Shown here piece by piece: positions 4,256-35,397 of a DNA stretch of 35,397 nucleotides. Location of the stretch: the NCBI RefSeq assembly GCF_049337375.1, contig NZ_JBMPIV010000015.1, one strand, 5' to 3'. Position 1 is the first letter of the stretch. Each line of letters begins with the position of its first letter. The DNA is from Nannocystis pusilla. Lineage in GTDB: Bacteria; Myxococcota_A; Polyangia; Nannocystales; Nannocystaceae. The notes under the pieces are model-generated. The model saw nothing but the letters and a program-made list of their open reading frames with translations. It made no database searches and was not told the origin of the DNA. Made by a program: the position numbers and the translations under genes.

Positions 4256-4450
4256 TATGTCCCTTGGGACATGTCTTCAGGGGCGTTCGACGAGGGCGTG
4301 GGCGGAGCCGGGTCGGATGTCCCTGGGGACAGGTTGTCGGGGGCGGCCGGATCGGCTGTCCCCGAGGATGTGCGGTCGAGAGGGGACGGCGGAACAGGTG
4401 AGGGTGTCCTCTCGGGCATGTCATCCGAGACATGTCCCGAGGGTCCGACC
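4256..4450. repeat. cluster of five copies of the palindromic repeat family (TGTCCCTTGGGACATGTC, TGTCCCTGGGGACAGGTTGTC, GCTGTCCCCGAGGATGTG, GGGTGTCCTCTCGGGCATGTCATCCGAGACATGTCCCGAGGGTCC) in the divergent PAP2/SUKH-gene intergenic region
   Basis: read directly from the sequence; a further half-copy TTTGGGGACAGGTG lies at 4605-4626. Confidence 0.8.
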
Positions 4451-4742
4451 AGCTGCCAGGCGTTCGGTCTGGAAGCGCGCGCCAGCGGGTGGGCGGCCGC
4501 GGGCGGGGCGGCGAGGGCGAGGACCAGGGCCAGAGACAGGCAGCGCGACATGCTCGGTCGGACGAGTATGCCCAATCGCAGGCCGGCGGCGCCGAGATCG
4601 GATGGCTTTGGGGACAGGTGAGTCGCGGGCTCGGCCGGAGGCGCGTCGATCGCGCTGTGTTGGCAGAGGACGTCCGGGTCGAGCCCGATGGACGCCCTGC
4701 TGGCAGAGGACCTCCGGGTCGGGCTACATTGGGCGTCCAGCG

Positions 4743-6062
4743 ATGCAGACCGGGACGTACGCGGAGCTCGAGGCGCGATTGACGGGGTTGGCGACGGCGG
4801 CCGCGGGCGGGGACGCGGAGGCGGCGCGATCGCTGACGCGCGAGCTGGAGGCGCTGGTCGAGGCGCCGGCGTGCCGCGAGGGCTGGCCGCGGCCCGGGAG
4901 CGTGGCGTTCAAAGCGTTCGATGTGTTCCTCGAGGCCGAGGGGGCCGAGCGATCGGCGACGCTGGGCCACCTCGCGGGGCCGTTCCTGCGGGCGATCGCG
5001 GCCCATCCGGAGACCCTCGGGGTGCCGCACGGCTTCCGGCCGGCGGCGACGCTGGGACCGTCGGCGATCCCGCTGCTGGTGGCGCTGCTGGACAGCGGGC
5101 TGCGACGGACGACGCGAGCGGCGATCGATGCGCTCGGCGAGTACAACCCGAACAACGAGGTCGGCTTCAAGCTGGCGGGCGAGGCGGTGAGCCGCTTGCT
5201 GGCGTACGCGGACGGCGAGGCGGTCGCGGCCGGGTTGATGAAGATCGAGTGGAACGACGAGCGGCTGTGGCTGCTGTTCCGCGTGCTGGCGGACGGCAAC
5301 TCGCTGGACCCGGCGAACCGCGGGCCGGCGACCGCGGTGGCGCTGGCGCGGCTGGTGGCGGCGACTGCGAGGATCACGGGTTCGGGGGCGGACAGGCTGC
5401 GAGCGCTGCTGCTGCGGGCGAAGATCATCCCGAAGGCGATGGCGCCGGGGATCGTGCTGGCGAGGTTGCCGAAGCAGCTGCCGCACACTGTGGCGGAGGC
5501 GCTGGCGTTGATGACCGCGTGGGAGCTGAGGCCCGCCGAGGTGGAGGCGAAGGGACCGGCGCGGGAGCGCGAGATCGAGGCGCTGGCGAAGCACGTGAGC
5601 GCCCGGATGCCGCAGGAATTGAGGCAATTGCTGGCGACGCACGCGGCGCTCGGGTCGCGCGACTTCGGGCCGCCGGCGCGCATGCGCCAGCTGTTCCACG
5701 AAATGGTGGGGACGATCGAGGACGACGAGGAGGAGGCCGACGACCCGCCGAGCGGCCGCGGGCGCTACGACGTGCGTGGCTTCGATCCGGCGAAGAAGGC
5801 GATCCCGCTGGGCAGCGATCCGTCCGGCGACCTGTTCTTCCTGGCGACGGGGGCGAAGTCGGAGGCGAACGCGGCGCCGGTGATCCGCTACCGCCACGAT
5901 CAGGCGCTGGTGGCCACGATCGCGGCCGACTCGCTCGGCGAGTACGTGGCGCTGATCCTGGCCCGCGCGTACGCCCGCCGCGAGGGGCTCGAGGCGCAGC
6001 TCGACAAGCTCGAGGGGCGCAAGCGGACGATCGTGTCAGGCTACAAGCCGCCGAAGCGATGA
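4743..6062 (+). CDS. hypothetical protein with C-terminal SMI1/KNR4 (SUKH-1)-like domain
   Basis: ATG at 4743 (M163 of ORF 4257..6062; the upstream part is repeat-encoded junk); C-terminus …AIPLGSDPSGDLFFLATG…PVIRYRHDQALVATIAADSLGEYVALIL matches the SUKH-1 pattern from memory. Confidence 0.6.
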   Translation: MQTGTYAELEARLTGLATAAAGGDAEAARSLTRELEALVEAPACREGWPRPGSVAFKAFDVFLEAEGAERSATLGHLAGPFLRAIAAHPETLGVPHGFRPAATLGPSAIPLLVALLDSGLRRTTRAAIDALGEYNPNNEVGFKLAGEAVSRLLAYADGEAVAAGLMKIEWNDERLWLLFRVLADGNSLDPANRGPATAVALARLVAATARITGSGADRLRALLLRAKIIPKAMAPGIVLARLPKQLPHTVAEALALMTAWELRPAEVEAKGPAREREIEALAKHVSARMPQELRQLLATHAALGSRDFGPPARMRQLFHEMVGTIEDDEEEADDPPSGRGRYDVRGFDPAKKAIPLGSDPSGDLFFLATGAKSEANAAPVIRYRHDQALVATIAADSLGEYVALILARAYARREGLEAQLDKLEGRKRTIVSGYKPPKR

Positions 6063-6256
6063 GCGGCGGACCGGCCGCGAGGGCTCCTGCCCGAGCACGA
6101 ACGATGACTCCCTTCATTCGGGCCCCTCGTCTCGTGGCCGTTTCCACGGGTGCTCGGCCATGCGTTACCAGCGGCGATCCATCCTCGGCACAAGCCCTGG
6201 CAAAGGATGACGGGCGGCACGAGGAGGCGCGCCCACGGCGTCGTGCTGCGGCCGCT

Positions 6257-7926: not shown

Positions 7927-9027
7927 ATGACGACCACGACTCGCCTCCTCACCTTGTCCTCGCTCTTCCTCGCACTGCCGGCCTGTGACTCGAAGGTCGA
8001 GGGTCATCACGCGAACGACGGCGACTCCGCGGCCGGCGAGGGCGACAGCGAGGGCGCCGAGGAAGGCGAGGGCGACAGCGAGGGCGAGGTCAAGAGTGAG
8101 GACGAAGGCGAGCCCGAGCCCAAGGCGGACTTCGGCCGCGCGGGCGAGATCTGCGACCAGTCCCAGCTGTCCGGCGAGTGTCAGATCGACGGCGTCGCCG
8201 GCCTCGAGTTCTGCGTGTGGTCGCTCGAACAGTACAACCACATCTGGACCGCCTGTCTGACGGAGACGTGCGCCAAGGAGGGCGACTCGCGCGCCTGTGA
8301 GGGCGGCACCCAGCACTGCGTCGCTTACGAGGCGACCCCCGACACCGGCGAGACGCGCTGGGGCGAGTGCGGCGAGGCCGACGAGTGCAAGCCGGGCGAC
8401 AGTCAGTCGTGCGGCTTCGGCGAGGAAGAGTTCGACATCGACATGGGCTGCATGGTCGACGAGGAGACCGGCCGCCACGTGTGGAACTGGGAAGACTGCA
8501 ACACCCCGCTGGTGCTGAGCTTCGGCGATGCCATCGAGTTCGCGCCGACCTCCGCCGCGGCGGCGGACTTCGACATCCACGGCGGCGCCGGCAGCTGCGC
8601 CCGCGCCGACTGGCCGACGGCCACCACCCCGTGGCTCGCGCTCGACCGCGACGGCAACGGCAGCATCGACGGCGGCCAGGAGCTGTTCGGCGCCGCCACC
8701 CGCCTGTCCTTCGGGTCAGGTGTGCACAACGGCTTCCAGGCCCTCGCCGAGCTCGACAGCGACCACGACGGCAAGATCACCGCCGCGGACGCGCGCTGGG
8801 GCGAGCTGATGCTGTGGGCCGACCACGACGCCGACCGTCGCTCGAGCGGCTGGGAGATGCTCCCGCTCGCGAGCTTCGAGATCGTCGAGATCGATCTCGG
8901 CTTCACCACCCGCCGCGAGTGCGATGCGCGCGGCAACTGCGGGCTCGAGCGCGCCAGCTTCGTCTACCGCACCGCCGGCCAGCAGCGCACCGGCGAGGTC
9001 GTCGACGTGCGCGTCGCCTGCGAATGA
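7927..9027 (+). CDS. secreted Cys-rich lipoprotein with acidic linker and DxDxDG calcium-binding-like motifs
   Basis: Signal peptide plus lipobox LALPACD; motifs LDRDGNGSIDGGQE and LDSDHDGKITAAD. Confidence 0.7.
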   Translation: MTTTTRLLTLSSLFLALPACDSKVEGHHANDGDSAAGEGDSEGAEEGEGDSEGEVKSEDEGEPEPKADFGRAGEICDQSQLSGECQIDGVAGLEFCVWSLEQYNHIWTACLTETCAKEGDSRACEGGTQHCVAYEATPDTGETRWGECGEADECKPGDSQSCGFGEEEFDIDMGCMVDEETGRHVWNWEDCNTPLVLSFGDAIEFAPTSAAAADFDIHGGAGSCARADWPTATTPWLALDRDGNGSIDGGQELFGAATRLSFGSGVHNGFQALAELDSDHDGKITAADARWGELMLWADHDADRRSSGWEMLPLASFEIVEIDLGFTTRRECDARGNCGLERASFVYRTAGQQRTGEVVDVRVACE

Positions 9028-9078
9028 GAGGACATGGCTGCGGGGCGGGGCGCGAGCCATCGCCTCCGCCCGGGCTGC

Positions 9079-10200
9079 TCACCCCGACGCCCCCAGCAAC
9101 TGCTGCCCGAGCGCCTCGGGGCAGCGCCACACATCTGCCACCGGCTCGTACGTACATATCGTCGAGCGGGCGCTCGATCGCGGCCCGGCCGGCGGCTGAT
9201 CGTCCGCGGCGATGTCCGTGAGCCGGCTGGTCTCGCGCAGCTGCAGGTCCGCGTGCCCGTCGCCGTCGACATCGCGGGCCAGCCACACCGTCTCCGCCGT
9301 CGACTCGCTGCCCCCGACATCCTCCGCGCGCATCACGTGCCGACGCGTCGCCGAGAACTGCACGTGCAGATCGGCCACCTCGAGGATGAACCCGACTTCA
9401 CCGCTCTCGTGGTCCATCGCCTGGTCGTGCTGCGGCCGCTCGACCGGCACGATCACCGTCAGCTCCGAGCGCCCGTCACCGTCGACGTCGTACACCTTGA
9501 ACTTGTGGGGCACGTCGTCGACCCGCATCGACCCCTCGAACAGCCGCCTCCGCCCCAGCACCGCGCCGTCGCGCACGCGCGCGACCTCCCACGCGAACAC
9601 CTCGCGTCCGGCCGCCGACCACATCACATACGGATCGGCGATCGCCCCCGCGAGGCACACGCTGAGCTCCCCCGGTGTCCCTTCGCACGCGTCCACCTGC
9701 GCCTCCAACCCCGTCAGCGCCGCCTCGAGCCGCCCCGCTCGCCGCTCCTGTGCCTGCCACGCCCGCGCCCCGTACCAGCGCAGCAACACCAGCTCGTCGC
9801 GCCCGACCGCCCTTCGATCGACCACCTCGATCACCTCCGCGTCTTCCCCTGCGAGCACCCGGCCCAGCGCCGCGAGCTCGACCGCCGACCCAGCGGGCGG
9901 AGCGACATCCGGCCTCGGCGCCTCGGCGACCTGCGACGCGACATCCTTGGCCACAACGACCTCCGTCCCGGGTCCGACATCCTTGCCCTGGGCGACCTCC
10001 TCCGACCCGACCGCCGCGCCATCCTTCGCCGCCACTACCGTGTCTGCGGCTCGATCCGCCGCGACCTGCCCGGCCGGCCCAGCCGCGACCTCGGGCTTCC
10101 CGTCACTCGCTCGCCCACCCGTCCCCTCGCTGGCCGTACAGCCCATCGCACCGCTCAGCGCGACGATCCACCCGAGCGCGCGTGGTCTAGAGAGCGACAT
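9079..10200 (-). CDS. lipoprotein with FG-GAP/VCBS-like DxDGDG repeats
   Basis: Start at M96 of ORF 9079..10485 (MSLSRPRALGWIVALSGAMGCT, lipobox); motifs VYDVDGDGRSEL and DVDGDGHADL. Confidence 0.6.
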   Translation of the reverse strand: MSLSRPRALGWIVALSGAMGCTASEGTGGRASDGKPEVAAGPAGQVAADRAADTVVAAKDGAAVGSEEVAQGKDVGPGTEVVVAKDVASQVAEAPRPDVAPPAGSAVELAALGRVLAGEDAEVIEVVDRRAVGRDELVLLRWYGARAWQAQERRAGRLEAALTGLEAQVDACEGTPGELSVCLAGAIADPYVMWSAAGREVFAWEVARVRDGAVLGRRRLFEGSMRVDDVPHKFKVYDVDGDGRSELTVIVPVERPQHDQAMDHESGEVGFILEVADLHVQFSATRRHVMRAEDVGGSESTAETVWLARDVDGDGHADLQLRETSRLTDIAADDQPPAGPRSSARSTICTYEPVADVWRCPEALGQQLLGASG

Positions 10201-10595
10201 GCGGCCAGTCAGCCACGCTCTCCCCGCCGCGTCAACCAGTCCGCGCGCGCGATCACCCGCTCTGAGAAAAGACACCGGGTCAAATCGTTGTTCAGGAGGC
10301 TGCTGCGACGAAATCGTGGATCGACTGCGCGTCGCTCGAATCGCTGGTGTGCGGCAACCTGTCCGTGCTGCTCGCCGTGCACCGCCGGCACTTCTACAAG
10401 GCCATCGGATACTACGAGGTGACCGGGGTGGGCGTGGAGCAGCCGGGTCAACCACGCGCTCTACGACCTCTACCCCGGCGCCCACGGTGGGCCGCGACTA
10501 CTTGACGCCCGTGAGCGTCCCGCGCTTCTCTGACCATCATGCGCTGTGCGGCCATTCAGGCCAGCGCCGTCGGGACGGGCGAGAGGCGGTCTGCG

Positions 10596-11050
10596 ATGCA
10601 CGATTCATCGCCCACCGGGTCGGAGCGACAGATTCTTCGCCCCACGGGTATGTTCATACCTCGGGGATACAGCCACGGCGTCCGCACGTCCGGCGGAGCG
10701 CTGATCTGCGTCGCCGGCCAGTCCGGGCGCGATTCAAGCGGCGCGTTGCGACGGTGAGGTCGTGGCGCAGACCCGTCAGGCGCTGATCAACCGTCGTCGC
10801 GGCCGGTGGGGGCACCATGGCCGCCGTCGTCCGGCTCGGCGTGCCGGTGACGAACATGGCCGACTTTCTCGCCCACTCGGTCGAGCTGGCGCTGCTGTTC
10901 CGGATGTTCTTCACCGCTGGCCTGCCAGCGATGTCGCTGCCCGAGGTCGTGCGCTTCATGGATCCCGCCGTGCTGATCGAGGTCGACGCGATGGCCGTCG
11001 TCTCCGAGCGGACGCCAGGGTCGCGCGCGTGCTTGGGCTGCAGGACGTGA
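10596..11050 (+). pseudogene. RidA/YjgF/TdcF-family (reactive-intermediate deaminase) pseudogene disrupted by two frameshifts
   Basis: RidA-like segments in three frames: MHDSS…FIPRGYSHGVRTSGGALICVAGQSGRD (frame 0), GEVVAQTRQALIN (frame 1), MAAVVRLGVPVTNMADFLAHSVEL…PAVLIEVDAMAVV (frame 2); shifts near 10745 and 10790. Confidence 0.55.
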
Positions 11051-11408
11051 CAGGAGATCCGGTCCTGCGAAGGAACGCACGTTCGGCTGGTAGGAATGAG
11101 CCGGGGGGCATACGCCTGAAGATGGCGCTCGCCGCGCTGTCGATCGCGTGCGGCCGTCGACGCGCTCCTGGACCTGACATCCCGGCTTCGCGCCGCGGTC
11201 GCGCCGGCGGAGACTGCCGTGGTTGCTAGCGAACACACCTTACGACGAGGCGGTGGTCCATTCATCGAAGTGCGGGTCTCCCCGTGGCCCCCAGGGCGGG
11301 GCGGAGCCGCCCCGGCCGCGCGAAATGCCTCCACGGCATGAACGCGATTCGGGTCGGGACCGAGAGCAATGCTCATAGCCGCGCTCGCGCGGGCGAAGGA
11401 TGAAGTTT

Positions 11409-12752
11409 ATGAACAGATTCACTCTCTCTCGACGAACGATGCTCCGAGGGGCAGCCGGCGTGTGCGTGGCGCTACCCTTCCTCGAAGTCATGGCGCGACC
11501 CGGCGGCGCGGGCCCGCGGCCGCGAGCGGCCCATCCGCGGCGCTTTATCGTGTTCTATACGCCGAACGGCACGGTGATGAAGAATTGGCGGCCGTCGGGT
11601 GACGCGGACGCATTCACGCTCTCGCCGATCTTGCAGCCGCTGGAGCCCTTCAAGCAGGAACTCGTCATCGTCGACGGCGTCGACGCGCTGTCGGCCTATC
11701 ACGGGCCGGGAGACGCCCACCAGAAGGGGACGGGGCAGGCGCTGACCGGCACCCAGCTGCAAGAGGGCAATTTCAAGGGCAGCAGCGACTTCACGGCCGG
11801 GTGGGCCGATGGCATCTCGATCGATCAGAAGATCGCCGACGCGATCGCGGGCTCGACGAAGTTTCGCTCGCTCGAGTTCGGGGTTCGCATCAAGGGCGCC
11901 ACGGTCAGCTCGCGGATCTCCTACCGCGGCCCGGCGCAGCCGCTCCCTCCCGAGGTCGATCCGGCGGCGGGTTTCGCCCGGATCTTCGGCGACCTCCATC
12001 TGTCCGCCGACGAGCGCGCGCGCAAGATCGCCGAGCGCCGCAGGGTCCTCGACGCAGTCGCGGCGGACTACGAGCGGCTCCTGCCGAGGGTCGGGGCGGC
12101 CGACCGGATCAAGCTGGAGGCGCACCTCGAGGCGGTCCGCGACATCGAGGGGCGGCTCGAGTCCGGGTACGACGACAGTGGCGTGTGTGCGCCGCCCGAG
12201 CTCTCCGACGAGCCCGACCTGCAGACGCTGGCGAAGGTCCCGGCGCTCGGCAAGCTGCAGATGGATCTCCTCGCCATGGCGATCGCCTGCGACCTGACTC
12301 GAGTGGCGTCGATCATGTGGGCGAACTCCTCGAACATCGACCCGTTTCCGTGGCTGTCGATCCACGAGGCGCACCACGAGCTGTCTCACCGCGGGGACGG
12401 CGACGACGACGCGCAGGAGAAGTTGACGAAGATCAACACCTGGTACGCCGAGCAGTTCGCTTATCTGCTCGCCAGACTGAGGGCGATCCCCGAAGGCGAC
12501 GGCACGGTCCTGGACAACACGCTGGTGGTGTGGGTCAACGAGCATCAGAAGGGCAATAACCACGATCGCAGTCAGATGCCCTACGTCCTCGCCGGGAAGG
12601 CGGGCGGCGCGGTGAAGACGGGCCGCTGGCTGCGGGTCGACGGCGAAGTGCCGCACAACAACCTCTGGGTCGGCTGCATGCACGCGATGAGGATCGACGA
12701 GATGAGCTTCGGCAACCCCAAGTACTGCACCGGCGCCCTGAGCCTGGCCTGA
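11409..12752 (+). CDS. DUF1552-family protein with twin-arginine signal
   Basis: SRRTMLRGAAGVCVALPFLEVMA Tat-like signal; length and motifs (HELSHRG…, VWVNEHQKGNNHD) fit DUF1552 as I recall it; AAGGA Shine-Dalgarno 9 nt before ATG 11409 (the ORF opens at 11400). Confidence 0.75.
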   Translation: MNRFTLSRRTMLRGAAGVCVALPFLEVMARPGGAGPRPRAAHPRRFIVFYTPNGTVMKNWRPSGDADAFTLSPILQPLEPFKQELVIVDGVDALSAYHGPGDAHQKGTGQALTGTQLQEGNFKGSSDFTAGWADGISIDQKIADAIAGSTKFRSLEFGVRIKGATVSSRISYRGPAQPLPPEVDPAAGFARIFGDLHLSADERARKIAERRRVLDAVAADYERLLPRVGAADRIKLEAHLEAVRDIEGRLESGYDDSGVCAPPELSDEPDLQTLAKVPALGKLQMDLLAMAIACDLTRVASIMWANSSNIDPFPWLSIHEAHHELSHRGDGDDDAQEKLTKINTWYAEQFAYLLARLRAIPEGDGTVLDNTLVVWVNEHQKGNNHDRSQMPYVLAGKAGGAVKTGRWLRVDGEVPHNNLWVGCMHAMRIDEMSFGNPKYCTGALSLA

Positions 12753-13158: not shown

Positions 13159-13950
13159 ATGACCGACACGAACACCTACGCCCTCGCTGACGCCGCCCAC
13201 GACGCCGAGCTCGCCCGCCTGCGGACCATCGAGGCCGACTGGGACGCCAAGACGCGGCGGCACCTCCAGGACCTCGGGCTCGGGCCGGGACATCGCTGCC
13301 TCGAAGTCGGCGCCGGGGCCGGCGGCGTCGCCAGATGGCTCTCGGGACAGGTCGGTCCGGGCGGCAAGGTCGTCGCCACCGACATCGACCCGCGCTTCCT
13401 CGCCGACCTGAACGCCGACAACATCGAGGTGCGCCGCCACGACATCGCCGTCGACCCGCTCGAGACCGACAGCTACGACCTGGTCCATTGCCGCGTCCTT
13501 CTGATCCACATGCGCGACCCGGCGGCCGTGCTGCAGCGGATGTTCGCCGCCCTGCGGCCGGGCGGCGCCTTCCTGTTCGAGGAGACCACCGGCCGCGCGG
13601 GCTCCGGCGCTCCCGGCTGGAGCGGCGCCGCGGCCTTCGACCGCGCCGAGGCGCGATACCTCGCCATGCTCGCGGCGATCGGCGTGCGGATGACCTACGG
13701 CGCCCATCTGCCGGGCCTGCTGCTCGGGCTCGGCGCGGTCGACGTCGGCGCCGAGGAGACCGCACACCTGCTGCGACCCGGCCCGCAGCTCGCCCTCAGG
13801 CTGGCGACCGTACGAGCCTTGCGCCCCCACGCGGTCGCCTCCGGCTCGTTCACGGAGGCCGAAATCGACGAGTACTGCGCCCTGCTCGCCGACCCCGACC
13901 TCGTCGCCGTCAACTCGCCCCTGATCAGCGTGTGGGGCCGCAGGCCCTGA
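13159..13950 (+). CDS. class I SAM-dependent methyltransferase
   Basis: Motif I LEVGAGAGGVARWL and acidic-loop VVATDID; start at M37 of ORF 13051..13950. Confidence 0.75.
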   Translation: MTDTNTYALADAAHDAELARLRTIEADWDAKTRRHLQDLGLGPGHRCLEVGAGAGGVARWLSGQVGPGGKVVATDIDPRFLADLNADNIEVRRHDIAVDPLETDSYDLVHCRVLLIHMRDPAAVLQRMFAALRPGGAFLFEETTGRAGSGAPGWSGAAAFDRAEARYLAMLAAIGVRMTYGAHLPGLLLGLGAVDVGAEETAHLLRPGPQLALRLATVRALRPHAVASGSFTEAEIDEYCALLADPDLVAVNSPLISVWGRRP

Positions 13951-14273: not shown

Positions 14274-14286
14274 TGCTGCATCGACG

Positions 14287-16134: not shown

Positions 16135-16148
16135 GGCGCGGCAGGGCG

Positions 16149-23459: not shown

Positions 23460-23468
23460 GGGCCATGG

Positions 23469-25228: not shown

Positions 25229-25233
25229 GGCCG

Positions 25234-25963: not shown

Positions 25964-26210
25964 TGAGTGGCGAGAACGTGGCGGAACGCCTGGCCTGCAG
26001 GCGCTGGCGTCGATCAGCAGCGATGCGCGTGGACGCGCGGGCGCCGGAGCGTTGTGGCGGGGACCACACGGATCTGCTCCAGGTTCTGGGTGGGCGAAGT
26101 CGCGCAAGGTCGATCCCCGCAGGCGATCAAGCCGTTCGCGTCGGGACGAGTCGCGCCACGAAGGCGCTCGCGCGCCCGGGTGAGGCTGGGCGTCGGCCTC
26201 GCGTGTCTGC

Positions 26211-26332
26211 GAGGACATGCGCGCGAGGACATGCGCGCGAGGACATGCGCGCCAGGGCATGCGCGAGGACATGCGCGCGAGGACATGCGCGCGAGGACAT
26301 GCGCGCGAGGACATGTCCGAGAGGACATGCCC
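26211..26332. repeat. microsatellite-like tandem array, about nine units of GAGGACATGCGCGC (14 bp), ending in GAGGACATGTCCGAGAGGACATGCCC. An expansion of the repeat-family half-site
   Basis: read directly from the sequence; lies just 3' of the stop at 26347. Confidence 0.9.
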
Positions 26333-26346
26333 TCGGAGCCAGCGGC

Positions 26347-28309: not shown

Positions 28310-29089
28310 TCAGGTGCCGATGACGGAGCCGCCGTCGACGCTCAAGATGGCGCCGTTGATGAAGCTCGACTTGTCGTCGGCCAGGAAGAGATAGGCGCGA
28401 GCGATGTCGTCGGGCTGTCCGGCGCGGCCGACCGGGGTGTGCTCGATCAGCGCGTTATAAACCTTCTCGGGGATGCTCTTGACCATGTCCGTGGCGATGA
28501 AGCCCGGGGCGACGGCGTTCGCCGTGATGCCGTAACGGCCGAGCTCGCGCGCCCATACGCGCGTCATGCCGACGACGCCGGCCTTGGCGGCGACGTAGTT
28601 GGTCTGGCCGAAGTTGCCGTACAACGCGACCACCGAGCTGGTGCTGACGATCCGCCCGTACTTCTGGGCGATCATCGTCGGCACGACCGCCTGGGTGCAG
28701 TTGAACACGCCCTTGAGGCAGACATCGAGGACGAACTGGAACTGGTCGGCGCTCATCTGACCGACCACCTGTCCGTCCTTGACCTTGACGAGCTGGCCGT
28801 CGCGGACGACGCCGGCGTTGTTGATGAGGACGTCGATCCGGCCGAAGCGCTCGAGCACGGCGGCGACCCCGGCGACGCAGTCCTCGGGCTTGCTGACGTC
28901 GACCTTGCGAGCGATGGCGACGCCGCCGGCGGCGGTGATCGCGGACACGACCTCCTCGGCTGCCTGTTCGGCCAGGTCCCACACGGCCACGCCGTAGCCG
29001 GCCTCGGCGAACTTGAGAGCGGTGGCGCGGCCGATGCCGTTGCCGCCGCCGGTGACGATGGCGATCCGCGGTTGCTGGGTGCTTGTCAT
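28310..29089 (-). CDS. fabG: 3-oxoacyl-ACP reductase (FabG-like SDR)
   Basis: IAIVTGGGNGIGRA; NNAG; S…YVAAKAGVVG; start at M131 of ORF 28310..29479. Confidence 0.85.
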   Translation of the reverse strand: MTSTQQPRIAIVTGGGNGIGRATALKFAEAGYGVAVWDLAEQAAEEVVSAITAAGGVAIARKVDVSKPEDCVAGVAAVLERFGRIDVLINNAGVVRDGQLVKVKDGQVVGQMSADQFQFVLDVCLKGVFNCTQAVVPTMIAQKYGRIVSTSSVVALYGNFGQTNYVAAKAGVVGMTRVWARELGRYGITANAVAPGFIATDMVKSIPEKVYNALIEHTPVGRAGQPDDIARAYLFLADDKSSFINGAILSVDGGSVIGT

Positions 29090-29257
29090 GCGGCGGCGAG
29101 CGTACCGAGGGCCGCCGAGGTCGCCTGCACCAAGAGCCAGGGTGAGATGTGAGCTTGCGCCCTGTCGGTGACCGCAGCGCGCGGCTCGGGCGTCCACGGA
29201 GGATGATGGCCGCCGCTTGTCGTCTCCAGGGCGATCCCCGTAGGATGCGCCGACCCC

Positions 29258-29545
29258 ATGACAGAGACCGCGCCGCCCGAAGCCCTGGTCCGCGAGATCA
29301 AGGAGCTCATCATCGAGGCCCTGATGCTGCAGGACATGACCCCCGAGGACATCGACCCGGAGGCGCCGCTTCTGGTCGAGGGGCTGGGCCTCGACTCGAT
29401 CGACGTGCTCGAGCTGGCGATGGCCATCGGCAAGAAGTACGGCGTCAAGACCCGCGCCGACGACGCCCAGAACCGACACATCTTCGCCAGCGTGACCAAC
29501 CTGGCCCGCTTCGTCGCCGAACAGCGCGCGCCGGCGGCGAGCTGA
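29258..29545 (+). CDS. acyl carrier protein
   Basis: GLDSID phosphopantetheine-attachment motif; 95 aa. Confidence 0.85.
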   Translation: MTETAPPEALVREIKELIIEALMLQDMTPEDIDPEAPLLVEGLGLDSIDVLELAMAIGKKYGVKTRADDAQNRHIFASVTNLARFVAEQRAPAAS

Positions 29546-29553
29546 GGCCCGAC

Positions 29554-30204
29554 ATGGCGGACCCGAACGGCGAGCCGCGGCGAGCCGCGGGGGTCCCCAG
29601 GTGGGTGCCCGCGGTGCTGCGGTCGGTGGTGATCGGCGGCTATCCGCTGGTCGTGTACCTCGGCATGACGCGCTGGAGCCCGCGCACCCTGGCGCTGGTG
29701 CTGGCGGTGGCGCTGCTCCCGGGGCTTCTGCTGCGCCTGCGCGAGGCCCGGCGCGAGGACCTGTGGCCGGTGCTGCGGGTGCCGCTGTCGCTGTTCGGGC
29801 TGTTCGCGGCGGCGGCGCTGTCGGGCGAGCAGCGGCTGTTCATGGCCCTGCCGGTGCTGGTCAACCTGGGCCTCTTGGCCAACTTCGCCGCCAGCCTGCG
29901 CGGGCCGGTGTCGCTGGTCGAACGGTTCGCACGCCTGCAGGAGCCCGACCTGCCGCCCGGCGGGCCGGCGTACTGCCGCACCTGGACCAAGATCTGGTGC
30001 GGTTTCTTCGTCGCCAACGCGGCCGTCAGCGCCGGCCTGGCGCTGTGGGCCCCGGTGGCCTGGTGGACGCTCTACACCGGACTTTTGGCCTACCTGCTGA
30101 TCGGGGTAATGTTCACCGTCGAGTTCGTCGTCCGCAAGGCGACCTTCCGTCGCTTCGGCGACGGGCTGCCCGACCGCCTGCTCCGCCGACTGCTCCGCGC
30201 ATGA
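29554..30204 (+). CDS. integral membrane protein of the lipid cluster
   Basis: multiple TM helices; stop overlaps the next start (ATGA at 30201-30204). Confidence 0.65.
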   Translation: MADPNGEPRRAAGVPRWVPAVLRSVVIGGYPLVVYLGMTRWSPRTLALVLAVALLPGLLLRLREARREDLWPVLRVPLSLFGLFAAAALSGEQRLFMALPVLVNLGLLANFAASLRGPVSLVERFARLQEPDLPPGGPAYCRTWTKIWCGFFVANAAVSAGLALWAPVAWWTLYTGLLAYLLIGVMFTVEFVVRKATFRRFGDGLPDRLLRRLLRA

Positions 30205-32255
30205 AGTCGTTCGCCCCGCTCGTCCACACCGATCCCGCGGCGCTCGTCGCCGTGGGCGAGGCCGGCGCGCGCACGGCCGGCGAGCTCATGCGCGACGCGA
30301 GGGCCGTCGCGGCGCGGCTGCCGGCGCCGATGCCGGGGAGCGAGGTGCTGGTGGTGTGCGGCGACCGCTACCACCTGGCGGTGACGACCCTGGCGGCGTG
30401 GCTGCGCGGCCACGCGGTCGCGCTGCCGCCCAACGCCCAGCCGGCGGCCGTGCGCGAGCTGGCCGGGCGGCCGTCGGTGGTCGCGCTGCTGCACGACTCC
30501 GACCTGGCCGACGCGCAGGACGTCCGCGAGTGGCTGGAAGGACATGTTTCAGGGGACATGGCCGATCCGACATGGCCCGAAGCGCTGGCGCCCGATCGCC
30601 GGCTGGCGGTCGTGTACACCTCGGGCAGCACCGGCGATCACCAGCCGTGCGCCAAGACGGCCGCGCAGCTGCTCGGCGAGGCGCAGGCGCTGGCGGCCAC
30701 GTTCGCCCTGCGGGCCGGCGAGGTGGCGCTGGCGACGGTGCCGCCGTACCACCTCTACGGGCTGCTGTTCGGGATCCTGGCGCCGCTGGCTGCGGGGGCG
30801 GCGTTCGCCCGCGAGACGCCGCTGCACGCCGAGACGGTGGCCCGGGCGGCGCGGCAGGTGGAGGCGACGGTGCTGGTCAGCACGCCGGCGCACCTGCGCG
30901 GGCTGACGGTGCTGACGCGCGGCGACCTGCCGCCGCTGTCGCGGGTGTTCTCGTCGGGCGCGCCGCTGCCGCGGGCCACCGCCGACGAGCTGCTGACCAA
31001 GCTGGGCCTGCAGGTGACCGAGGTGTACGGCTCGTCGGAGACCGGCGGGATCGGCTGGCGGCGGCACGAGGATGTTTTAAAAGACATGTCCCCGGAGCCA
31101 GCCTGGACGCCGCTGCCGGGAGTGACGGTCGAGGTGGCGGCCGAGGGGCGGCTGCTGCTGCGCTCGCCGTTCTTGGCCCCGGACGCGCCGGTGCCGTACC
31201 CGTGCGAGGATCGCGTCGAGGTCGACGCGCGCGGCGGGTTCCACCTGCGCGGGCGGCTCGACGGGGTGGTGAAGATCGCCGGCAAGCGGGTGGCGGTGGC
31301 CGAGGTCGAGCAGCGCCTGCTGGCGCTGGCGGCGGTGGCCGACGCCGCGGTGGTGGCGGTCGAGTCGCCGGGCGCGCGCGGGCACGAGCTGGTGGCCGCC
31401 GTGGTGGCGCGCGAGGCCGGGCGCGACGCCGCCGAGCTGGTGGCCGAGCTGCGGCGGGCGCTGCTGCCGTGGTTCGACCCGGTGGTGGTGCCGCGGCGGA
31501 TCAAGGTGGTGCCGGCGCTGCCGCGCGAGCCGAGCGGCAAGCTGACGCGGCGCAAGCTGCACGCGCTGCTCGGGCTCGCGGGCGAGGAGGAGAGTGCGTC
31601 GGGTGGCGCGAAGGACATGTCTGTGAGGACAGATGCCGACGCAGCGAGCGCGGGTCCGAGGCTCGGTGGCGCGAGGGACATGTCCGCGGGGACAGAGGCC
31701 GCACCAGAGCGCGGTGGCGCGAGGGACATGTCCGCGGGGACAGAGGCCGCACCGGAGCGAGGTGGCGCGAGGGACATGTCCGCGGGGACAGATGCCGATC
31801 CGGAGCGCGGTGGCGCGAGGGACATGTCCGCGGGGACAGAGGCCCATGGGGCGTCGTGGGGTGTCTCGCGAGACATGTCCGCGGGGACAGGTGGCGCGTC
31901 GGCGTTCGCGCTGGGCGGCCACGCGCGGCGCGACGAGGGCGGGGCGGCGGTGCACGAGGTCGAGGTGGGGGTGCCGGTCGACCTTGCGTTCTTCTGCGGG
32001 CACTTCGACGCGCTGCCGGTGCTGCCGGGGGTGGCGCAGCTGACCGCGCTGGTGGTGCCGCAAGTGGCGGCGCTGCGGCCGGAGCTGGGGCCGCTGAGGC
32101 GGGCGGCGCGGCTGAAGTTCACCCGGCCGATCGCGCCGGGCGACGCGCTGGTGCTGCGGCTCGAGGTCCGCGGGACTCAGGTCCGCTTCTCGTTGGCGCG
32201 GGCCGGCGAGGTGGTCACGGCGGGGGCGCTCGAGTACGAGGCGCGCGGAGGCTGA
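30201..32255 (+). CDS. AMP-dependent synthetase/ligase fused through a 5.5 x 16-aa repeat linker to a FabA/FabZ-like hotdog dehydratase domain
   Basis: YTSGSTG and GSSETGG AMP-binding motifs; FFCGHFDALPVLPGVAQL matches the hotdog dehydratase active-site motif; the true ATG at 30201 overlaps the upstream stop. Confidence 0.8.
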   Translation: MKSFAPLVHTDPAALVAVGEAGARTAGELMRDARAVAARLPAPMPGSEVLVVCGDRYHLAVTTLAAWLRGHAVALPPNAQPAAVRELAGRPSVVALLHDSDLADAQDVREWLEGHVSGDMADPTWPEALAPDRRLAVVYTSGSTGDHQPCAKTAAQLLGEAQALAATFALRAGEVALATVPPYHLYGLLFGILAPLAAGAAFARETPLHAETVARAARQVEATVLVSTPAHLRGLTVLTRGDLPPLSRVFSSGAPLPRATADELLTKLGLQVTEVYGSSETGGIGWRRHEDVLKDMSPEPAWTPLPGVTVEVAAEGRLLLRSPFLAPDAPVPYPCEDRVEVDARGGFHLRGRLDGVVKIAGKRVAVAEVEQRLLALAAVADAAVVAVESPGARGHELVAAVVAREAGRDAAELVAELRRALLPWFDPVVVPRRIKVVPALPREPSGKLTRRKLHALLGLAGEEESASGGAKDMSVRTDADAASAGPRLGGARDMSAGTEAAPERGGARDMSAGTEAAPERGGARDMSAGTDADPERGGARDMSAGTEAHGASWGVSRDMSAGTGGASAFALGGHARRDEGGAAVHEVEVGVPVDLAFFCGHFDALPVLPGVAQLTALVVPQVAALRPELGPLRRAARLKFTRPIAPGDALVLRLEVRGTQVRFSLARAGEVVTAGALEYEARGG
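30537..30584. repeat. repeat-family copy (GAAGGACATGTTTCAGGGGACATGGCCGATCCGACATGGCCCGAAGCG) in-frame in the ligase, encoding EGHVSGDMADPTWPEA just before the YTSGSTG motif; a second copy at 31071-31099 encodes DVLKDMSPEP
   Basis: atypical codons (gtt tca, aca, gaa, tta aaa). Confidence 0.7.
31603..31905. repeat. tandem array of about 5.5 units of 48 bp, each GGTGGCGCGAGGGACATGTCCGCGGGGACAGAGGCCGCACC(A/G)GAGCG(C/A), encoding (ERGGARDMSAGTEAAP)n between the ligase and dehydratase domains
   Basis: read directly from the sequence; not CRISPR-like because the units have no unique spacers. Confidence 0.9.
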
Positions 32256-32269
32256 GGCGGTGCGTATGG

Positions 32270-32403
32270 CCGAAGGGGCAGGTCGTTGCCAGATGTCCGG
32301 GAGGACAGGTCGTCCGCCGACGGTCGGCGGGCGGGGTGCGCCCCGCGGCGGGAGGCGGGCATGAGCGCGGACGGAGGCCAGGATGTGTCCCGAGGGACAG
32401 GTG
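32270..32403. repeat. repeat copies in the ligase/GT2 intergenic region and in the first 15 codons of GT2 (CCGAAGGGGCAGGTCGTTGCCAGATGTCCGGGAGGACAGGTCGTCC; GGATGTGTCCCGAGGGACAGGTG)
   Basis: read directly from the sequence. Confidence 0.75.
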
Positions 32404-33176
32404 AAGCCGGGGCCGCGGCGTTCCGGCCGTGCGCGCTGATCCCGACCTTCGACAACCCGCGGACGGTGCGGGACGTGGTGCTGCGGGTCAAGGCGCACCT
32501 GCCCGACGTGGTGGTCATCGACGACGGCTCGGGGCCGGAGGGCCGCGCCGCGGTCGAGGCGCTCGGGGCGGAGGGGCTGGCGCACGTGCGGCGACGGCCG
32601 CACAACGGCGGCAAGGGGGCGGCGGTCAAGACCGGGTTCCAGTTCGCCCACGAGCTCGGCTACACCCACGCGCTGCAGGTCGACGCCGACGGGCAACATG
32701 ACCTGGGGGACATCCCGCAATTCCTCGCCACCGCGCGCGAGCGGCCGGACGCGCTCGTCCTCGGGGCGCCGGTGTACGACGCGTCGGCGCCCAAGGGGCG
32801 GCTCGTCGCCCGCAAGATCACGCTGTTCTGGACCAACTTCGAGGCGGGGCGCGGGGTCATCACCGACCCGATGTGCGGCTTCCGCGTGTACCCGCTGGCG
32901 CCCGCGCTGGCGCTCGGGCGCACCGGCGACCGCATGGACTTCGACATCGAGATCGCGGTCCGCCTGGTGTGGGCGGGGGTGCCGGTGATCAACCTGCCGA
33001 CCAAGGTCCGCTACATCGGCCGCGACGAGGGCGGAGTGTCGCACTTCCGCGTGTTCGGCGACAACGTCAAGATCTCGTGGCTGCACACCCGGCTGTCGTT
33101 CCAGCGGGTGATGGTGCGCCCGTGGGTCAACCTCTACCGCCGCCTGCGCCGCCCGGCGCTGCCGGCCGGCCGCTGA
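32361..33176 (+). CDS. family-2 glycosyltransferase (polyprenyl-phosphate sugar transferase-like)
   Basis: GGGAGG Shine-Dalgarno 6 nt before ATG 32361; …ALIPTFDNPRTV…VVVIDDGSGPEG…QVDADGQHD motifs. Confidence 0.8.
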   Translation: MSADGGQDVSRGTGEAGAAAFRPCALIPTFDNPRTVRDVVLRVKAHLPDVVVIDDGSGPEGRAAVEALGAEGLAHVRRRPHNGGKGAAVKTGFQFAHELGYTHALQVDADGQHDLGDIPQFLATARERPDALVLGAPVYDASAPKGRLVARKITLFWTNFEAGRGVITDPMCGFRVYPLAPALALGRTGDRMDFDIEIAVRLVWAGVPVINLPTKVRYIGRDEGGVSHFRVFGDNVKISWLHTRLSFQRVMVRPWVNLYRRLRRPALPAGR

Positions 33177-33186
33177 GGGGCTGCGC

Positions 33187-33252
33187 GAGAGGACAGGTTC
33201 GATCGGCCATGGCTCATCAGGCAGGTGCGGGGGGACATGTCCCGGAGGACAA
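33187..33252. repeat. repeat copy (GAGAGGACAGGTTCGATCGGCCATGGCTCATCAGGCAGGTGCGGGGGGACATGTCCCGGAGGACAACC) between the GT2 and acyltransferase genes
   Basis: read directly from the sequence. Confidence 0.75.
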
Positions 33253-33263
33253 CCGGGCCGGGG

Positions 33264-33435
33264 CCGCGGCGGGCGAGCGCGGGGCGGGCGTGCCGGCGAC
33301 CGCCGCCGGGCAGGGGAGCGAGCGCGAGGCGGGCGGCGCCGCGGCGGGCGAGCGCGGGGCGGGCGTGCCGGCGACCACCGCGGGGCAGGGGAGCGAGCGC
33401 GAGGCGGGCGGCGCCGCGGCGGTCGAGGGCGACCG
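33264..33435. repeat. 75-bp tandem duplication (2.3 units) encoding (AAAGERGAGVPATAAGQGSEREAGG)n upstream of, or inside a 5' extension of, the acyltransferase gene
   Basis: read directly from the sequence. Confidence 0.85.
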
Positions 33436-33442
33436 GGCGTGG

Positions 33443-34321
33443 ATGACCCGGCCCGAGCGCGGGACGGTGCTCGGGATCAAGGCGACGCTGCTGTTCTGCC
33501 GGGTGTTCGGCCGCCGCGGGGCGGGGGTGCTGCTGGCGGTGATCACCTTCTACTACGCGCTGTTCGCCGGGGCGGCGCGGCGGGCCTCGCAGGACTACCT
33601 GCGGCGGATCGGCCAGCCGCACGGTTTCTGGGCCAGCTGGCGCCACATCTACACGTTCGCCCGCTGCGCCCTCGACCGCGTGTTCCTGGTCCGCGGCGAG
33701 ACGTCGCGGTTCCGCATCACGCACACGGGCATCGAGCACCTGCGGGCGCTGCAGCAGCAGGGCAAGGGGGCGCTGCTGCTCGGGGCGCACCTCGGCTCGT
33801 TCGAGGCGATGCGGGCCAGCAGCGCCGACAAGCGGCTGCCGATCCACATCCTCGCGTACTGGCAGAACGCGAAGATGATAAGCGACTTCTTGCGCACGGT
33901 GCAGGCCGACTTCGACGTGCGCGTGATCCCGATCGACCCGCGCGACACCAGCTACATCCTGGCCGCCAAGGAGGCGATCGAGCGCGGGGAGCTGGTGGCG
34001 GTGCTCGGCGACCGGGTCGGGGTCAACGAGAAGACCTGCACGGCCGAGTTCCTGGGCGCTCCGGCGCGCTTCCCGACCGGGCCCTACACCCTGGCGGCGC
34101 TGCTAAAGTGCCCGATCTATTTGACTTTCGGGCTTTATCACGGGCCCGACCGCTACGATCTGTATTGCGAGCCCTTCGCCGAACAATTAGAACTCCCCAG
34201 AGGCCGCCGCGAGGCCGCCACCGCCGCCCATGTCCAGCGCTACGCCGAACGCCTCGAGCACTACTGCCGCCTCGCGCCGCTCAACTGGTTCAACTTCTAC
34301 GAGTTCTGGAGGGCGGAGTGA
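33443..34321 (+). CDS. LpxL/HtrB-like (lysophospholipid/lipid A-type) acyltransferase; an alternative upstream start at 33209 would include the repeat-encoded extension
   Basis: family-like pattern RPERGTVLGIKATLLF…ALLLGAHLGSFE…AVLGDR; the stop TGA overlaps the GTG start of the next gene (GTGA). Confidence 0.7.
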   Translation: MTRPERGTVLGIKATLLFCRVFGRRGAGVLLAVITFYYALFAGAARRASQDYLRRIGQPHGFWASWRHIYTFARCALDRVFLVRGETSRFRITHTGIEHLRALQQQGKGALLLGAHLGSFEAMRASSADKRLPIHILAYWQNAKMISDFLRTVQADFDVRVIPIDPRDTSYILAAKEAIERGELVAVLGDRVGVNEKTCTAEFLGAPARFPTGPYTLAALLKCPIYLTFGLYHGPDRYDLYCEPFAEQLELPRGRREAATAAHVQRYAERLEHYCRLAPLNWFNFYEFWRAE

Positions 34322-35397
34322 GTAGCGCGCGCGTCCTCATCGTGGGGCCCGGGGGCATCGGCCTCGACGACGTGGTTCAGCTGGCCGAAGGGACAGCTTT
34401 CCCGGCGCTCGACGACGCCCCGGAGTACCGGGCGCTGCTGGGCCGCGGCGCCGACCACCTGGCGCGCCGGCTGGCCGCGGGCGAGGTCGTCTACGGGGTC
34501 ACGACCGGGTTCGGCGACTCGTGCGAGACGTCGGTGCCCGACGAGCACGTGGCGGCGATGCCGATCAACCTGATGCGCTTCCACGGCTGCGGCACCGGGC
34601 GGATCCTCGACGAGGTCGAGGCGGCCGCGGTGGTGGCGGTGCGGCTGGTGGCGCTGGCGCGCGGCTGGTCGGGCGTGCGCGTCGAGGTGCTCGAGCGCCT
34701 GTGCGACCTGCTGCGGCACCGCCTGCTGCCGCGGATCCCCGCCGAGGGCTCGGTCGGGGCCAGCGGCGATCTGACGCCGCTGTCGTACGTGGTGGCGGCG
34801 CTGGTCGGCGAGCGCGAGGTCTGGTTCAAGGGACAGGTCGCGCCCGCGGCCAAGGCGCTGCGCGAGGCCGGGATCCCGCCGCTCGTGCTGCAGCCCAAGG
34901 AGAGCCTGGCGCTGATGAACGGGACCAGCGTCATGGTCGGGCTCGGTTGCCTGGCGGTCGCGCGCGCGCAGCGGCTGGCGCGCCTGTGCGCGGCGCTGAC
35001 GGCGATGGGCAGCGACGTCCTCGGCGGCAACCCCGCTCACTTCGACGACCGCATCTTCGCCGCCAAGCCGCACCCGGGCCAGAGGGCCGTGGCGGGGTGG
35101 ATCCGCGAGGATATCGAGTTCCCGCGGCCGGCCGCCCCCGCCCGCATCCAGGACCGCTACTCGATCCGCTGCGCCCCCCACGTGATCGGCGTCCTCGTCG
35201 ACGCGCTACCCTGGGTCCGGCAGTGGCTGGAGGTCGAGATCGTCGGCGCCAACGACAACCCGCTGGTCGACCCGGAGACCGGCGAGGTGCTGCACGGCGG
35301 CAACTTCTACGGCGGCCACGCCTGCTTCGCGCTCGACTCGCTCAAGACGGCGGTGGCAAACCTCGCCGACCTGGTCGACCGCCAGATCGCGCTGGTC
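34318..35397 (+). CDS. aromatic amino acid ammonia-lyase (HAL/TAL/PAL, MIO-dependent), 5' part only; continues past the window end
   Basis: GVTTGFGDS…; MIO-forming GSVGASGDLTPLS (Ala-Ser-Gly at 34759-34767); absent from the ORF track because it has no stop within the window. Confidence 0.8.
   Translation, partial: MSSARVLIVGPGGIGLDDVVQLAEGTAFPALDDAPEYRALLGRGADHLARRLAAGEVVYGVTTGFGDSCETSVPDEHVAAMPINLMRFHGCGTGRILDEVEAAAVVAVRLVALARGWSGVRVEVLERLCDLLRHRLLPRIPAEGSVGASGDLTPLSYVVAALVGEREVWFKGQVAPAAKALREAGIPPLVLQPKESLALMNGTSVMVGLGCLAVARAQRLARLCAALTAMGSDVLGGNPAHFDDRIFAAKPHPGQRAVAGWIREDIEFPRPAAPARIQDRYSIRCAPHVIGVLVDALPWVRQWLEVEIVGANDNPLVDPETGEVLHGGNFYGGHACFALDSLKTAVANLADLVDRQIALV

Follow-up and report, generated by a model that had tools for sequence, protein, structure and literature searches.

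A genus-restricted family of very short hairpin repeats with REP-like behaviour in Nannocystis

The repeat module and its loci in the window

The stretch of DNA analysed here, referred to as the window, comprises the 35 397 nt taken from contig NZ_JBMPIV010000015.1 of Nannocystis pusilla (assembly GCF_049337375.1) and has a GC content of 72.5%. Its genes were mapped from third-position GC and Pfam matches, and among and within them lie the copies of a short palindromic repeat that includes the word GGACATGTCC. This word was found at 10 exact positions (16152, 16197, 16286, 16368, 26309, 31676, 31724, 31772, 31820 and 33233), against 0.04 expected from dinucleotide shuffles of the window. An earlier sequence-only reading had counted the exact palindrome at least ten times, at coordinates that lie 0–9 nt off, and had put the family above 30 copies and far above chance; both counts held, and about 38 copies were found in the window when up to one mismatch across the two 5-mers was permitted. 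The form TGTCC-N4-GGACA (TGTCCNNNNGGACA) gave 18 matches against 0.02 expected, and GGACAGGT gave 15 against 0.72, with 13 of them on the plus strand. The recurrent tail noticed three times in that reading, ACATGGCCCGAAG, is present exactly three times (14642, 20947 and 30570) against 0.02 expected. A chance or compositional artefact was ruled out by these shuffles together with outgroup loci of equal GC content.

The geometry of the repeat was determined in 170 kb of Nannocystis DNA. The gap from TGTCC to the following GGACA was 4 nt in 93 cases, with at most one case at any other spacing from 0 to 12. In the other direction, from GGACA to TGTCC, the two 5-mers were directly adjacent (N0) in 32 cases, and 12 more cases were spread over spacings of 2, 3, 4 and 7. 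These strict N4 and N0 spacings indicate that the family is built from a 14-nt module, GGACA-TGTCC-NNNN, which reads GGACATGTCC when chained and in which TGTCC and the next GGACA form a 5–8 bp stem with a 4-nt loop. A consensus was derived from 96 distinct copies, the ten core positions being fixed by the search pattern itself. The spacer that forms the loop was free, with a bias to GNNG; the consensus of the 5′ flank was (A/G)(G/C)(A/C) and that of the 3′ flank (G/T)G(T)(G/C). Two flavours could be distinguished, a symmetric one (CATGTCC-N4-GGACATG) and a polar one ((G)CTGTCC-N4-GGACAGG(T)). All copies that were folded as single-stranded DNA (ssDNA) gave a stem-loop, with energies from −3 to −14 kcal/mol. 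The stem reached 6–13 bp in some copies, including longer symmetric hairpins such as those at 23430–23459 (13-bp stem) and 26306–26335; most copies have no such extension, many have a stem of only 5 bp at −3 kcal/mol, and the conserved part is 14 nt (5+4+5). Sequence and geometry are thus conserved and hairpin stability is not. The T-rich left flank that had been described as a shared feature turned out to be the loop and decayed left arm of the preceding copy. That the core has no stop codon was correct by direct reading, yet unremarkable at 72% GC. The strict N4/N0 geometry was overlooked in the sequence-only reading, as were the polarity that follows strand skew, the restriction to one genus and the arrays translated in frame, all described below.

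The 18 exact copies are divided equally between intergenic DNA (9) and two disordered coding linkers (9). Convergent gaps, one divergent gap and coding sequence had been named as the places of the repeat, and exact copies were indeed located in three convergent gaps (16135–16423, 23405–23468 and 25148–25233), one divergent gap (~4180–4742) and two coding linkers; three same-direction gaps hold exact copies as well. Taken together, copies were mostly extragenic and commoner in 3′ than in 5′ gaps. The coordinates of copies given below are for the plus strand, except for the 30-nt palindrome at 23430–23459, to which no strand is assigned.

The divergent gap, between a PAP2 gene on the minus strand and a SUKH-domain gene on the plus strand, contains a cluster of about five copies (4256–4450), exact at 4258–4271 and 4318–4331, and at 4605–4626 there is a right half-site that keeps the polar tail (GGACAGGTG), its left arm having decayed to TGGCT-ttgg. 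The S41 peptidase and SDR genes converge on a gap in which five or six copies, four GGACATGTCC included, form a cluster (16149–16388). The 64-nt convergent gap past the gene of an M16 peptidase is occupied by the perfect palindrome GAGTGACATGTCC-CCGG-GGACATGTCACTC (23430–23459; −14.2 kcal/mol as DNA), and another convergent gap by two 52-nt units, each GAGAAGACTGTCYGAAGGGACAGGTGG (25146–25228). Between two minus-strand genes (26204–26330) we found an array of about nine units with a 14-nt period (GGACATGCGCGCGA), which represent the 14-nt module with a mutated TGTCC arm; the array ends in an intact GGACATGTCC-GAGA-GGACA. Just past the stop codon of a gene fusing AMP-binding and FabA-like domains, a decayed copy, TGGCC-gaag-GGGCAGG, which is exact in N. 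punicea and N. exedens, is followed by an exact copy at 32294–32307 (together 32267–32310). Further along are an exact copy with polar tail upstream of a glycosyltransferase gene (32386–32402) and, between that gene and an acyltransferase gene, a GGACAGGT half-site with GGGGACATGTCC-CGGA-GGACA (33191–33251). One-mismatch copies were located near the start of the minus-strand gene 23469–23957 (23943–23956), across the stop codon of a small minus-strand helix-turn-helix (HTH) gene (24159–24172) and in an ammonia-lyase gene (34382–34395), the last being a weak case. Most of the main loci listed in the sequence-only reading hold a copy or a recognisable variant, and the loci it called weaker at 1996–2020, 13333–13360, 34385–34400 and 34826–34840 are half-sites or decayed copies. 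At its locus 31071–31099 only a TGTCC half-site is kept (three mismatches in the core), where other species hold an exact or one-mismatch copy.

Since the copies prefer the gaps after genes, with three of about five convergent gaps occupied, they might act at the RNA level as terminators, stabilisers of mRNA 3′ ends or processing sites. The strong palindrome at 23430–23459 between convergent genes would suit such a role, as would the single copy, out of about 38, that fits a simple terminator pattern (25153–25168, minus strand). However, the orientation of the copies is independent of gene strand, many stems have just 5 bp and −3 kcal/mol, a U tract is not the rule, and copies also occur in a divergent promoter gap and in coding sequence. 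Terminator-like sites were not enriched in the window (5 against 3.4 expected), and Rfam 15 gave no match at gathering score anywhere in it. Variants with a G–T wobble outnumbered those with A–C by 18 to 3 in the genome set, but this excess was not reproduced in the metagenome set (12 to 9), and we rejected it as too weak to identify the folding strand. An RNA-structure element, one of the explanations offered previously, is therefore very improbable as a general account of the family; RNA-level roles may apply to single copies, namely those at 25153–25168 and 23430–23459.

Five cases of copies inside coding sequence were clear: the linker array of the fusion gene, the linker of a gene at ~18421–20300, an insertion in the M16 peptidase, a TetR-family gene and an AMP-binding domain. 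The fusion-gene array (31602–31892) has six copies with a 48-nt period, four of them GGGACATGTCCGCGGGGACAG, and is situated in the linker that joins the AMP-binding_C domain to the FabA-like domain, inside one long open reading frame (ORF) in which it is translated as GGARDMSAGTEAAPER repeats (RDMSAGT). This linker measured 196–400 nt in six species and was always in frame; in N. radixulma it has no intact core copy, one stretch possibly being a degenerate remnant. When the translated array (GGARDMSAGT… ×4) was used as the query of a search for other proteins with in-frame copies, not one of 3196 candidates obtained a score, probably as a result of low-complexity filtering. The minus-strand gene at ~18421–20300 encodes a conserved protein with a Zn-ribbon, a Pro-rich linker, a transmembrane segment and a C-terminal domain. 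It contains a 27-nt-period array (19569–19762), and its linker also carries a single copy, TGTCT-ctca-GGACAGGT, that is exact in six of seven species (19938–19954) and a one-mismatch copy, TGACC-ttcg-GGACAGGT, in the same frame as the others (20112–20128). All eight copies in this linker are in one frame, CCT GTC CCn nnG GAC AGC, and read PVPxDS. The codon CCT is rare (11 of the 482 Pro codons in the window's genes), yet it is used in every array copy, which indicates that the DNA word dictates the codon. In most comparisons the core was more conserved than the rest of the linker; with N. punicea, for instance, the identities were 0.95 and 0.72, respectively.

In the M16 peptidase, TTTTGGGACATGGCCCGAAG (20935–20960) lies in a 17-residue insertion directly after the HxxEH motif; the insertion was detected in all Nannocystis species and is absent from outgroups. 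A one-mismatch copy in a variable loop of the same enzyme (22780–22805) is accompanied by no length change relative to outgroups, and could thus be an old copy or a match by chance. The variant ACATGGCC-CGAA-GGACAG (14642–14659) is placed between the two domains of the TetR-family gene (14233–14979), and GGACATGTTTCAGGGGACATGGCCGATCCGACATGGCCCGAAG (30537–30584) in a variable stretch of the AMP-binding domain before its YTSGS motif. A decayed copy in the AMP-binding coding region (31073–31099) is exact in N. punicea and has one to three mismatches in other species. Insertions and deletions (indels) in the coding arrays were multiples of three. Repeat DNA is thus translated in frame, and inter-domain linkers are lengthened by up to ~70 residues between species. 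The only places in which copies survive are those where they cause little harm, namely intergenic DNA and, in frame, disordered linkers and surface loops of proteins.

Distribution among organisms and turnover between close species

The M16 peptidase gene (~20573–23404) was used as an anchor, and the loci of relatives were those of its homologues. Syntenic orthologous loci were obtained from Nannocystis sp. RBIL2 (L001), N. bainbridge (L002), N. punicea (L003), N. exedens (L004), N. radixulma (L005) and N. pusilla Na p29 (L006), with M16 protein identities of 87–98%; more distant homologues came mostly from other Nannocystaceae and Myxococcota. The six Nannocystis species showed 9–15 exact copies each in the orthologous 22 kb, and a distant Nannocystis metagenome-assembled genome (56% protein identity) had 4 copies in 16 kb. 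Another 33 M16-anchored loci with a GC content ≥0.68, belonging mostly to other Nannocystaceae and Myxococcota and totalling 524 kb, gave 1 copy, compared with 93 in the 170 kb of Nannocystis DNA. The module is thus genus-restricted. Neither the literature searched nor Rfam describes a repeat of this kind for Nannocystis or other myxobacteria; the sequence-only reading had not recognised a described element family either. The copies of N. radixulma were mostly of the symmetric form …CATGTCC-N4-GGACATG…, and many of those in the N. pusilla group had a polar GG tail, which suggests species-specific subfamilies.

Metagenomes were scanned for two copies 8–38 nt apart. Several Nannocystis-like contigs of 71–78% GC carried the same core, one of them (L280) with 20 copies in 9 kb; its tandem array comprises about 17 back-to-back units at periods of 18–25 nt. 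The scan also returned three short contigs of 42–54% GC from unrelated organisms (L220, L219 and L288), with 4–7 occurrences of TGTCC-N4-GGACA in 1–2 kb; these are presumably other tandem repeats sharing the word by chance. Viral contigs scanned for TGTCCNNNNGGACAGGTG gave 120 loci, nearly all single chance matches with no Nannocystis-like density, and served as background only.

To follow the repeat between close relatives, the window was aligned with the loci of Na p29 (97% identity) and RBIL2 (95% identity). Many indels of at least 9 nt were gains or losses of units containing the module, including nearly all of those in intergenic gaps and coding linkers, and the unit changes measured 27, 52, 82, 102, 114 and 202 nt. 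Between the convergent S41 peptidase and SDR genes there are 289 nt in the window, 87 nt in Na p29 and 177 nt in RBIL2. The gap at 25146–25228 has two units in the window, one in RBIL2 and four in Na p29, and the array at 26204–26330 is 82 nt shorter in RBIL2 and 162 nt longer in Na p29. Such changes fit gain and loss of whole units by replication slippage or by unequal recombination between copies. Some copies are old, others were lineage-specific, and still others were decayed where relatives keep an exact copy. The sequence-only reading had named, as a ground for rejecting the family, that the copies might prove to be ancestral sequence conserved in related genomes without the family elsewhere. 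In part this applies, several copies being ancestral and kept at orthologous sites; the family nevertheless stands, as other copies were gained in single lineages.

The same alignments bear on the possibility that the repeat is a self-propagating hairpin microsatellite with no enzyme acting in trans, that is, a few ancestral seeds multiplied by slippage, spread by recombination and segmental duplication and kept alike through concerted evolution inside each array. In favour of this model, every gain or loss that could be resolved was a change of tandem units, adjoining gene ends were sometimes duplicated together with a copy (in N. punicea, and at 16313–16428 of the window), and target duplications were not seen. 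However, the 14–20 nt core is all that over 20 distinct loci of the 35 kb have in common, their flanks being unrelated, and the core recurs in independent contigs from metagenomes. Homologous recombination could not homogenise arms as short as 5 nt, and strict N4 spacing and polarity are not expected from slippage alone. Pure slippage accounts for the arrays but does not explain how one 14-nt core came to be dispersed between unrelated flanks, and we regard the microsatellite model as quite unlikely.

Two further length differences were noted in the alignments. An extra minus-strand gene of ~800 nt lies between the M16 peptidase gene and the next gene in N. punicea (L003 12551–13466), N. exedens (L004 12551–13356) and Na p29 (L006 12546–13402); no counterpart is present in RBIL2, N. 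radixulma or the window. Its product is Ser/Thr-rich, Cys-rich and apparently secreted, and copies or variants of the module (half-sites, one-mismatch and decayed copies) are present upstream of it, between the M16 stop codon and the gene. In the window, ~700 nt of a lower-GC stretch (17265–17982) are absent from RBIL2 and Na p29, which have ~76 nt there. The stretch overlaps a minus-strand ORF (17314–18378) with a weak Acyl_transf_3 match and may reflect strain-specific gain or loss of a gene. In Na p29 the N-terminal Zn-ribbon part of the ~18421–20300 protein (about 9000–11170 of its locus, corresponding to 19900–20754 of the window) does not share the reading frame of the other six genomes, owing either to a frameshift or to a sequencing error.

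Orientation of the copies and interpretation

The flanks of the 96 distinct copies were strongly asymmetric, the 3′ tail GGT being present 35 times and its mirror image, 5′ ACC, twice. In the window all polar copies pointed in one direction over 35 kb, with genes on both strands. Orientation was compared with GC skew at 18 loci having at least two polar copies, after masking the half-sites and 40 nt on each side; the masked skew served as a proxy for the origin–terminus orientation switch. Orientation followed the sign of the skew, flipping with it in independent contigs (Spearman rho 0.83, p = 2e-5, 18 loci), with 13 loci concordant, 2 discordant and 3 tied. Contigs of negative skew had 3 forward and 38 reverse copies, and those of positive skew 25 forward and 6 reverse. 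The G-rich strand is presumably the leading strand. That the polar tail is on the G-rich strand whatever the direction of the genes suggests that the relevant form of the module is ssDNA at the replication fork, on the lagging-strand template. In addition, the combination of invariant half-sites, strict spacing, a free loop and varying stem stability points to recognition by a protein specific for sequence and geometry and not to selection for a stable structure.

Such a protein could belong to the host. The copies would then be putative binding sites of a Nannocystis-specific chromosome protein, either a dimeric HTH or nucleoid-associated protein reading the 5-N4-5 palindrome or a reader of the polar tail comparable to FtsK at FtsK-orienting polar sequences (KOPS) or RecBCD at Chi. 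A dimer site would show just such invariant half-sites, rigid spacing and a free spacer; the stability of the hairpin is not conserved, and some copies are conserved in all seven species, the core better than its flanks. The module shares with KOPS and Chi its G-rich composition, its over-representation and an orientation that follows the G-rich (leading) strand whichever way the genes run. KOPS (GGGNAGGG) and Chi (GCTGGTGG) are, however, single asymmetric 8-mers that need no inverted partner, lie mostly in genes and form neither hairpins nor arrays, and the Nannocystis tail (GGACAGGTG) fits neither consensus. Sites of a host protein would also hardly be expected to vary freely in number between close species (1 to 4; 0 to 6), to decay at orthologous positions, to form tight head-to-tail arrays of up to ~17 units with periods of 18–25 nt or to lie within coding linkers, and we know of no host protein that reads such a module. 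Although this is the main rival to the explanation developed below, we consider it unlikely.

The systems that the module resembles most in behaviour are the repetitive extragenic palindromes (REPs), their bacterial interspersed mosaic elements (BIMEs) and REPINs, with the REP-associated tyrosine transposases (RAYTs): both are short GC-rich hairpin repeats in high copy number (PMC3333891, PMC3116915, PMC3733652). Like REPs and BIMEs, the Nannocystis module is mostly extragenic, commoner after genes, clustered, variable between strains, lineage-specific and occasionally found in ORFs; REPs that lie inside ORFs and favour 3′ gaps have been reported (PMC3733652). Y1 transposases, namely TnpA of the IS200/IS605 insertion sequences (ISs) and RAYT, act on hairpins in lagging-strand template DNA (PMC3333891, PMC6006769). 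The polarity of the Nannocystis module would be explained if, as for REPs, the hairpin were recognised together with a short word beside it. On the other hand, the module is smaller (14–20 nt against 20–40 nt for REPs), and it holds one orientation over tens of kilobases, following GC skew, which REPs do not. The architecture is distinct from known REPs in its minimal size, head-to-tail arrays, skew-linked polarity and frequent in-frame translation. A REP/RAYT-type element had been suggested by the sequence-only reading; the REP/BIME-like behaviour stood, the diagnostic tag and the alternating orientation of BIMEs are absent, and no RAYT was found in the DNA searched, of which only ~0.3 Mb was from Nannocystis. 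We call the family REP-like on account of its behaviour and do not assign it to REP/RAYT.

We propose that the repeats form a genus-restricted, REP-like family of very short hairpin elements that were dispersed by an enzyme and then multiplied by local slippage, a reading to which we lend about as much confidence as doubt. By analogy with IS200/IS605 and the REP-associated Y1 (HUH) transposases, the module would be recognised as an ssDNA hairpin on the lagging-strand template; a putative hairpin-specific enzyme acting in trans would disperse it to new sites, where slippage would subsequently amplify local arrays. High copy number, confinement to one lineage, turnover, harmless positions, an invariant core with a free loop and a polarity blind to transcription are together the pattern expected from a REP-like element with a hairpin-specific ssDNA enzyme.

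Several results weigh against this proposal. No Y1 or RAYT gene was found by tblastn with E. coli RayT, IS200 TnpA and IS608 TnpA in 2.6 Mb of DNA, the best match having E = 0.18 and the best matches being devoid of the HUH and Tyr motifs; the negative is weak, as only ~0.3 Mb of the target was from Nannocystis, whose genomes are 11–13 Mb. A database search with E. coli RayT confirmed that the query was correct, and its best 120 matches, all from Enterobacteriaceae, were uninformative on Nannocystis. The palindrome of canonical REPs is bounded on one side by a conserved tetranucleotide, GTAG or CGTC (PMC3733652, PMC3333891), and neither GTAG/CTAC nor CGTC/GACG was present on either side of the module in the 96 copies. 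BIMEs consist of alternating REP/iREP pairs with linkers, while the Nannocystis arrays are head-to-tail and of one polarity, with periods of 14, 18–25, 27, 48 and 52 nt. In REPINs the mobile unit is a larger hairpin made of two inverted REPs; longer symmetric hairpins are seen in some Nannocystis copies and not in most. The species alignments contained no clean filled-versus-empty insertion of a single module into unique sequence, every resolvable gain being a tandem unit change. There was also no consistent target-site duplication flanking the copies, and the sole excess, a GGC 3-mer to the left and right of copies, derives from the spacers within arrays. The copies at 19617, 19644 and 19938 are exact in five to six of seven species, with a core better conserved than the surrounding linker, as would also fit a host function. 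Finally, density is uneven: an independent N. radixulma locus of 21 kb (L294), reached through a paralogous gene and so unbiased with regard to the repeat, had 1 exact copy, 3 more with up to one mismatch and 1 GGACATGTCC, and is about five-fold poorer than the N. radixulma orthologue of the window (9 exact copies and 21 in total within one mismatch). The density of the window therefore cannot be extrapolated to the whole genome.

A bolder form of the proposal, to which we attach low confidence, is that the module is more than selfish DNA: it would be the recognition site of a Nannocystis-specific protein acting on the lagging-strand template and thus a new replication-oriented hairpin signal, whose spread would have written the peptides RDMSAGT, PVPxDS and GHGPKS into linkers and loops, including the 17-residue M16 insertion beside the active site.

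Other repeat classes matched the module less well. Miniature inverted-repeat transposable elements (MITEs) have the terminal inverted repeats of a parent IS, span 50–500 bp and are flanked by a target duplication; with a unit of 14–20 nt, no long terminal repeats, no consistent target duplication and no parent IS seen, the MITE-like alternative raised earlier was abandoned. We also rejected the idea that the element consists of two fused transposon ends (TG…CA), since no known transposase site is nearly as short as its arms and no duplication is present. Rickettsia palindromic elements are reportedly single insertions of 100–150 bp, in frame in protein genes. They share with the module the tolerance of in-frame palindromic repeats in surface or linker regions, where peptide segments are added, but the Nannocystis unit is 14–48 nt, forms tandem arrays and is mainly intergenic. 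Mycobacterial interspersed repetitive units (MIRUs) and other variable-number tandem repeats likewise form intergenic tandem arrays that differ in unit number between close strains, with in-frame units in multiples of three. Each MIRU locus, however, has its own 40–100 bp unit and no shared dispersed hairpin word, whereas the Nannocystis loci are all built from one hairpin word dispersed over many loci.

The dense, genus-specific occurrence of a short word, with inverted pairs after genes and preferred frames in coding sequence, is also reminiscent of the DNA uptake sequences (DUS) of Neisseria and the uptake signal sequences (USS) of Pasteurellaceae, which mark self DNA for natural transformation. 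These are dispersed single words, evenly distributed, with no tandem arrays and no strand polarity. The Nannocystis copies are clustered, polar and uneven, and their unit is a palindromic pair of 5-mers instead of an asymmetric word of 9–12 nt, so that an uptake function seems to us barely credible.

Described short interspersed repeats are mostly from Proteobacteria. Being unusually small, geometrically strict and held in one orientation relative to strand composition, the Nannocystis module could show the minimal substrate of a hairpin-recognising enzyme. It explains many of the length differences of at least 9 nt between the close Nannocystis genomes compared here, nearly all those in gaps and coding linkers among them, and offers a ready marker for strain typing as well as a likely source of trouble in assembly and annotation.

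Other features of the window

Adjoining the 14-nt-period array, the minus strand encodes a conserved protein of 593 residues with no Pfam match (26347–28128). It was considered as a RayT, but the matches (E 0.2–3) had no catalytic motifs and were judged to be noise. A DUF1552 protein gene is located at 11400–12752; over 93% of its length the product matches, with 100% identity, an NCBI protein assigned to Nannocystis pusilla. A tRNA scan of the window found none. The genes at 28310–35397 encode an FabG-like SDR, an acyl carrier protein (29258–29545), the AMP-ligase fused to an FabA/ApeI-like dehydratase, a family-2 glycosyltransferase, a lipid A-type acyltransferase and an aromatic amino-acid ammonia-lyase, and from this gene content the region looks like an aryl-polyene or related lipid-pigment cluster.

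Three tandem repeats of other kinds were also observed. A ~150-nt repeat unrelated to the hairpin family (1045–1636; 3.9 copies, 79% identity) lies in a cysteine-rich minus-strand ORF (1042–1821) that has only weak zinc-finger-like Pfam matches. At the start of a PDZ-domain ORF there is a 44-nt repeat of 2.4 copies (24394–24501), where the window and RBIL2 differ in length by 89 nt. The third, a G-rich 75-nt repeat without the hairpin module (33254–33431; 2.4 copies, 94% identity), is situated at the 5′ end of the acyltransferase gene, and RBIL2 is without 126 nt of it.

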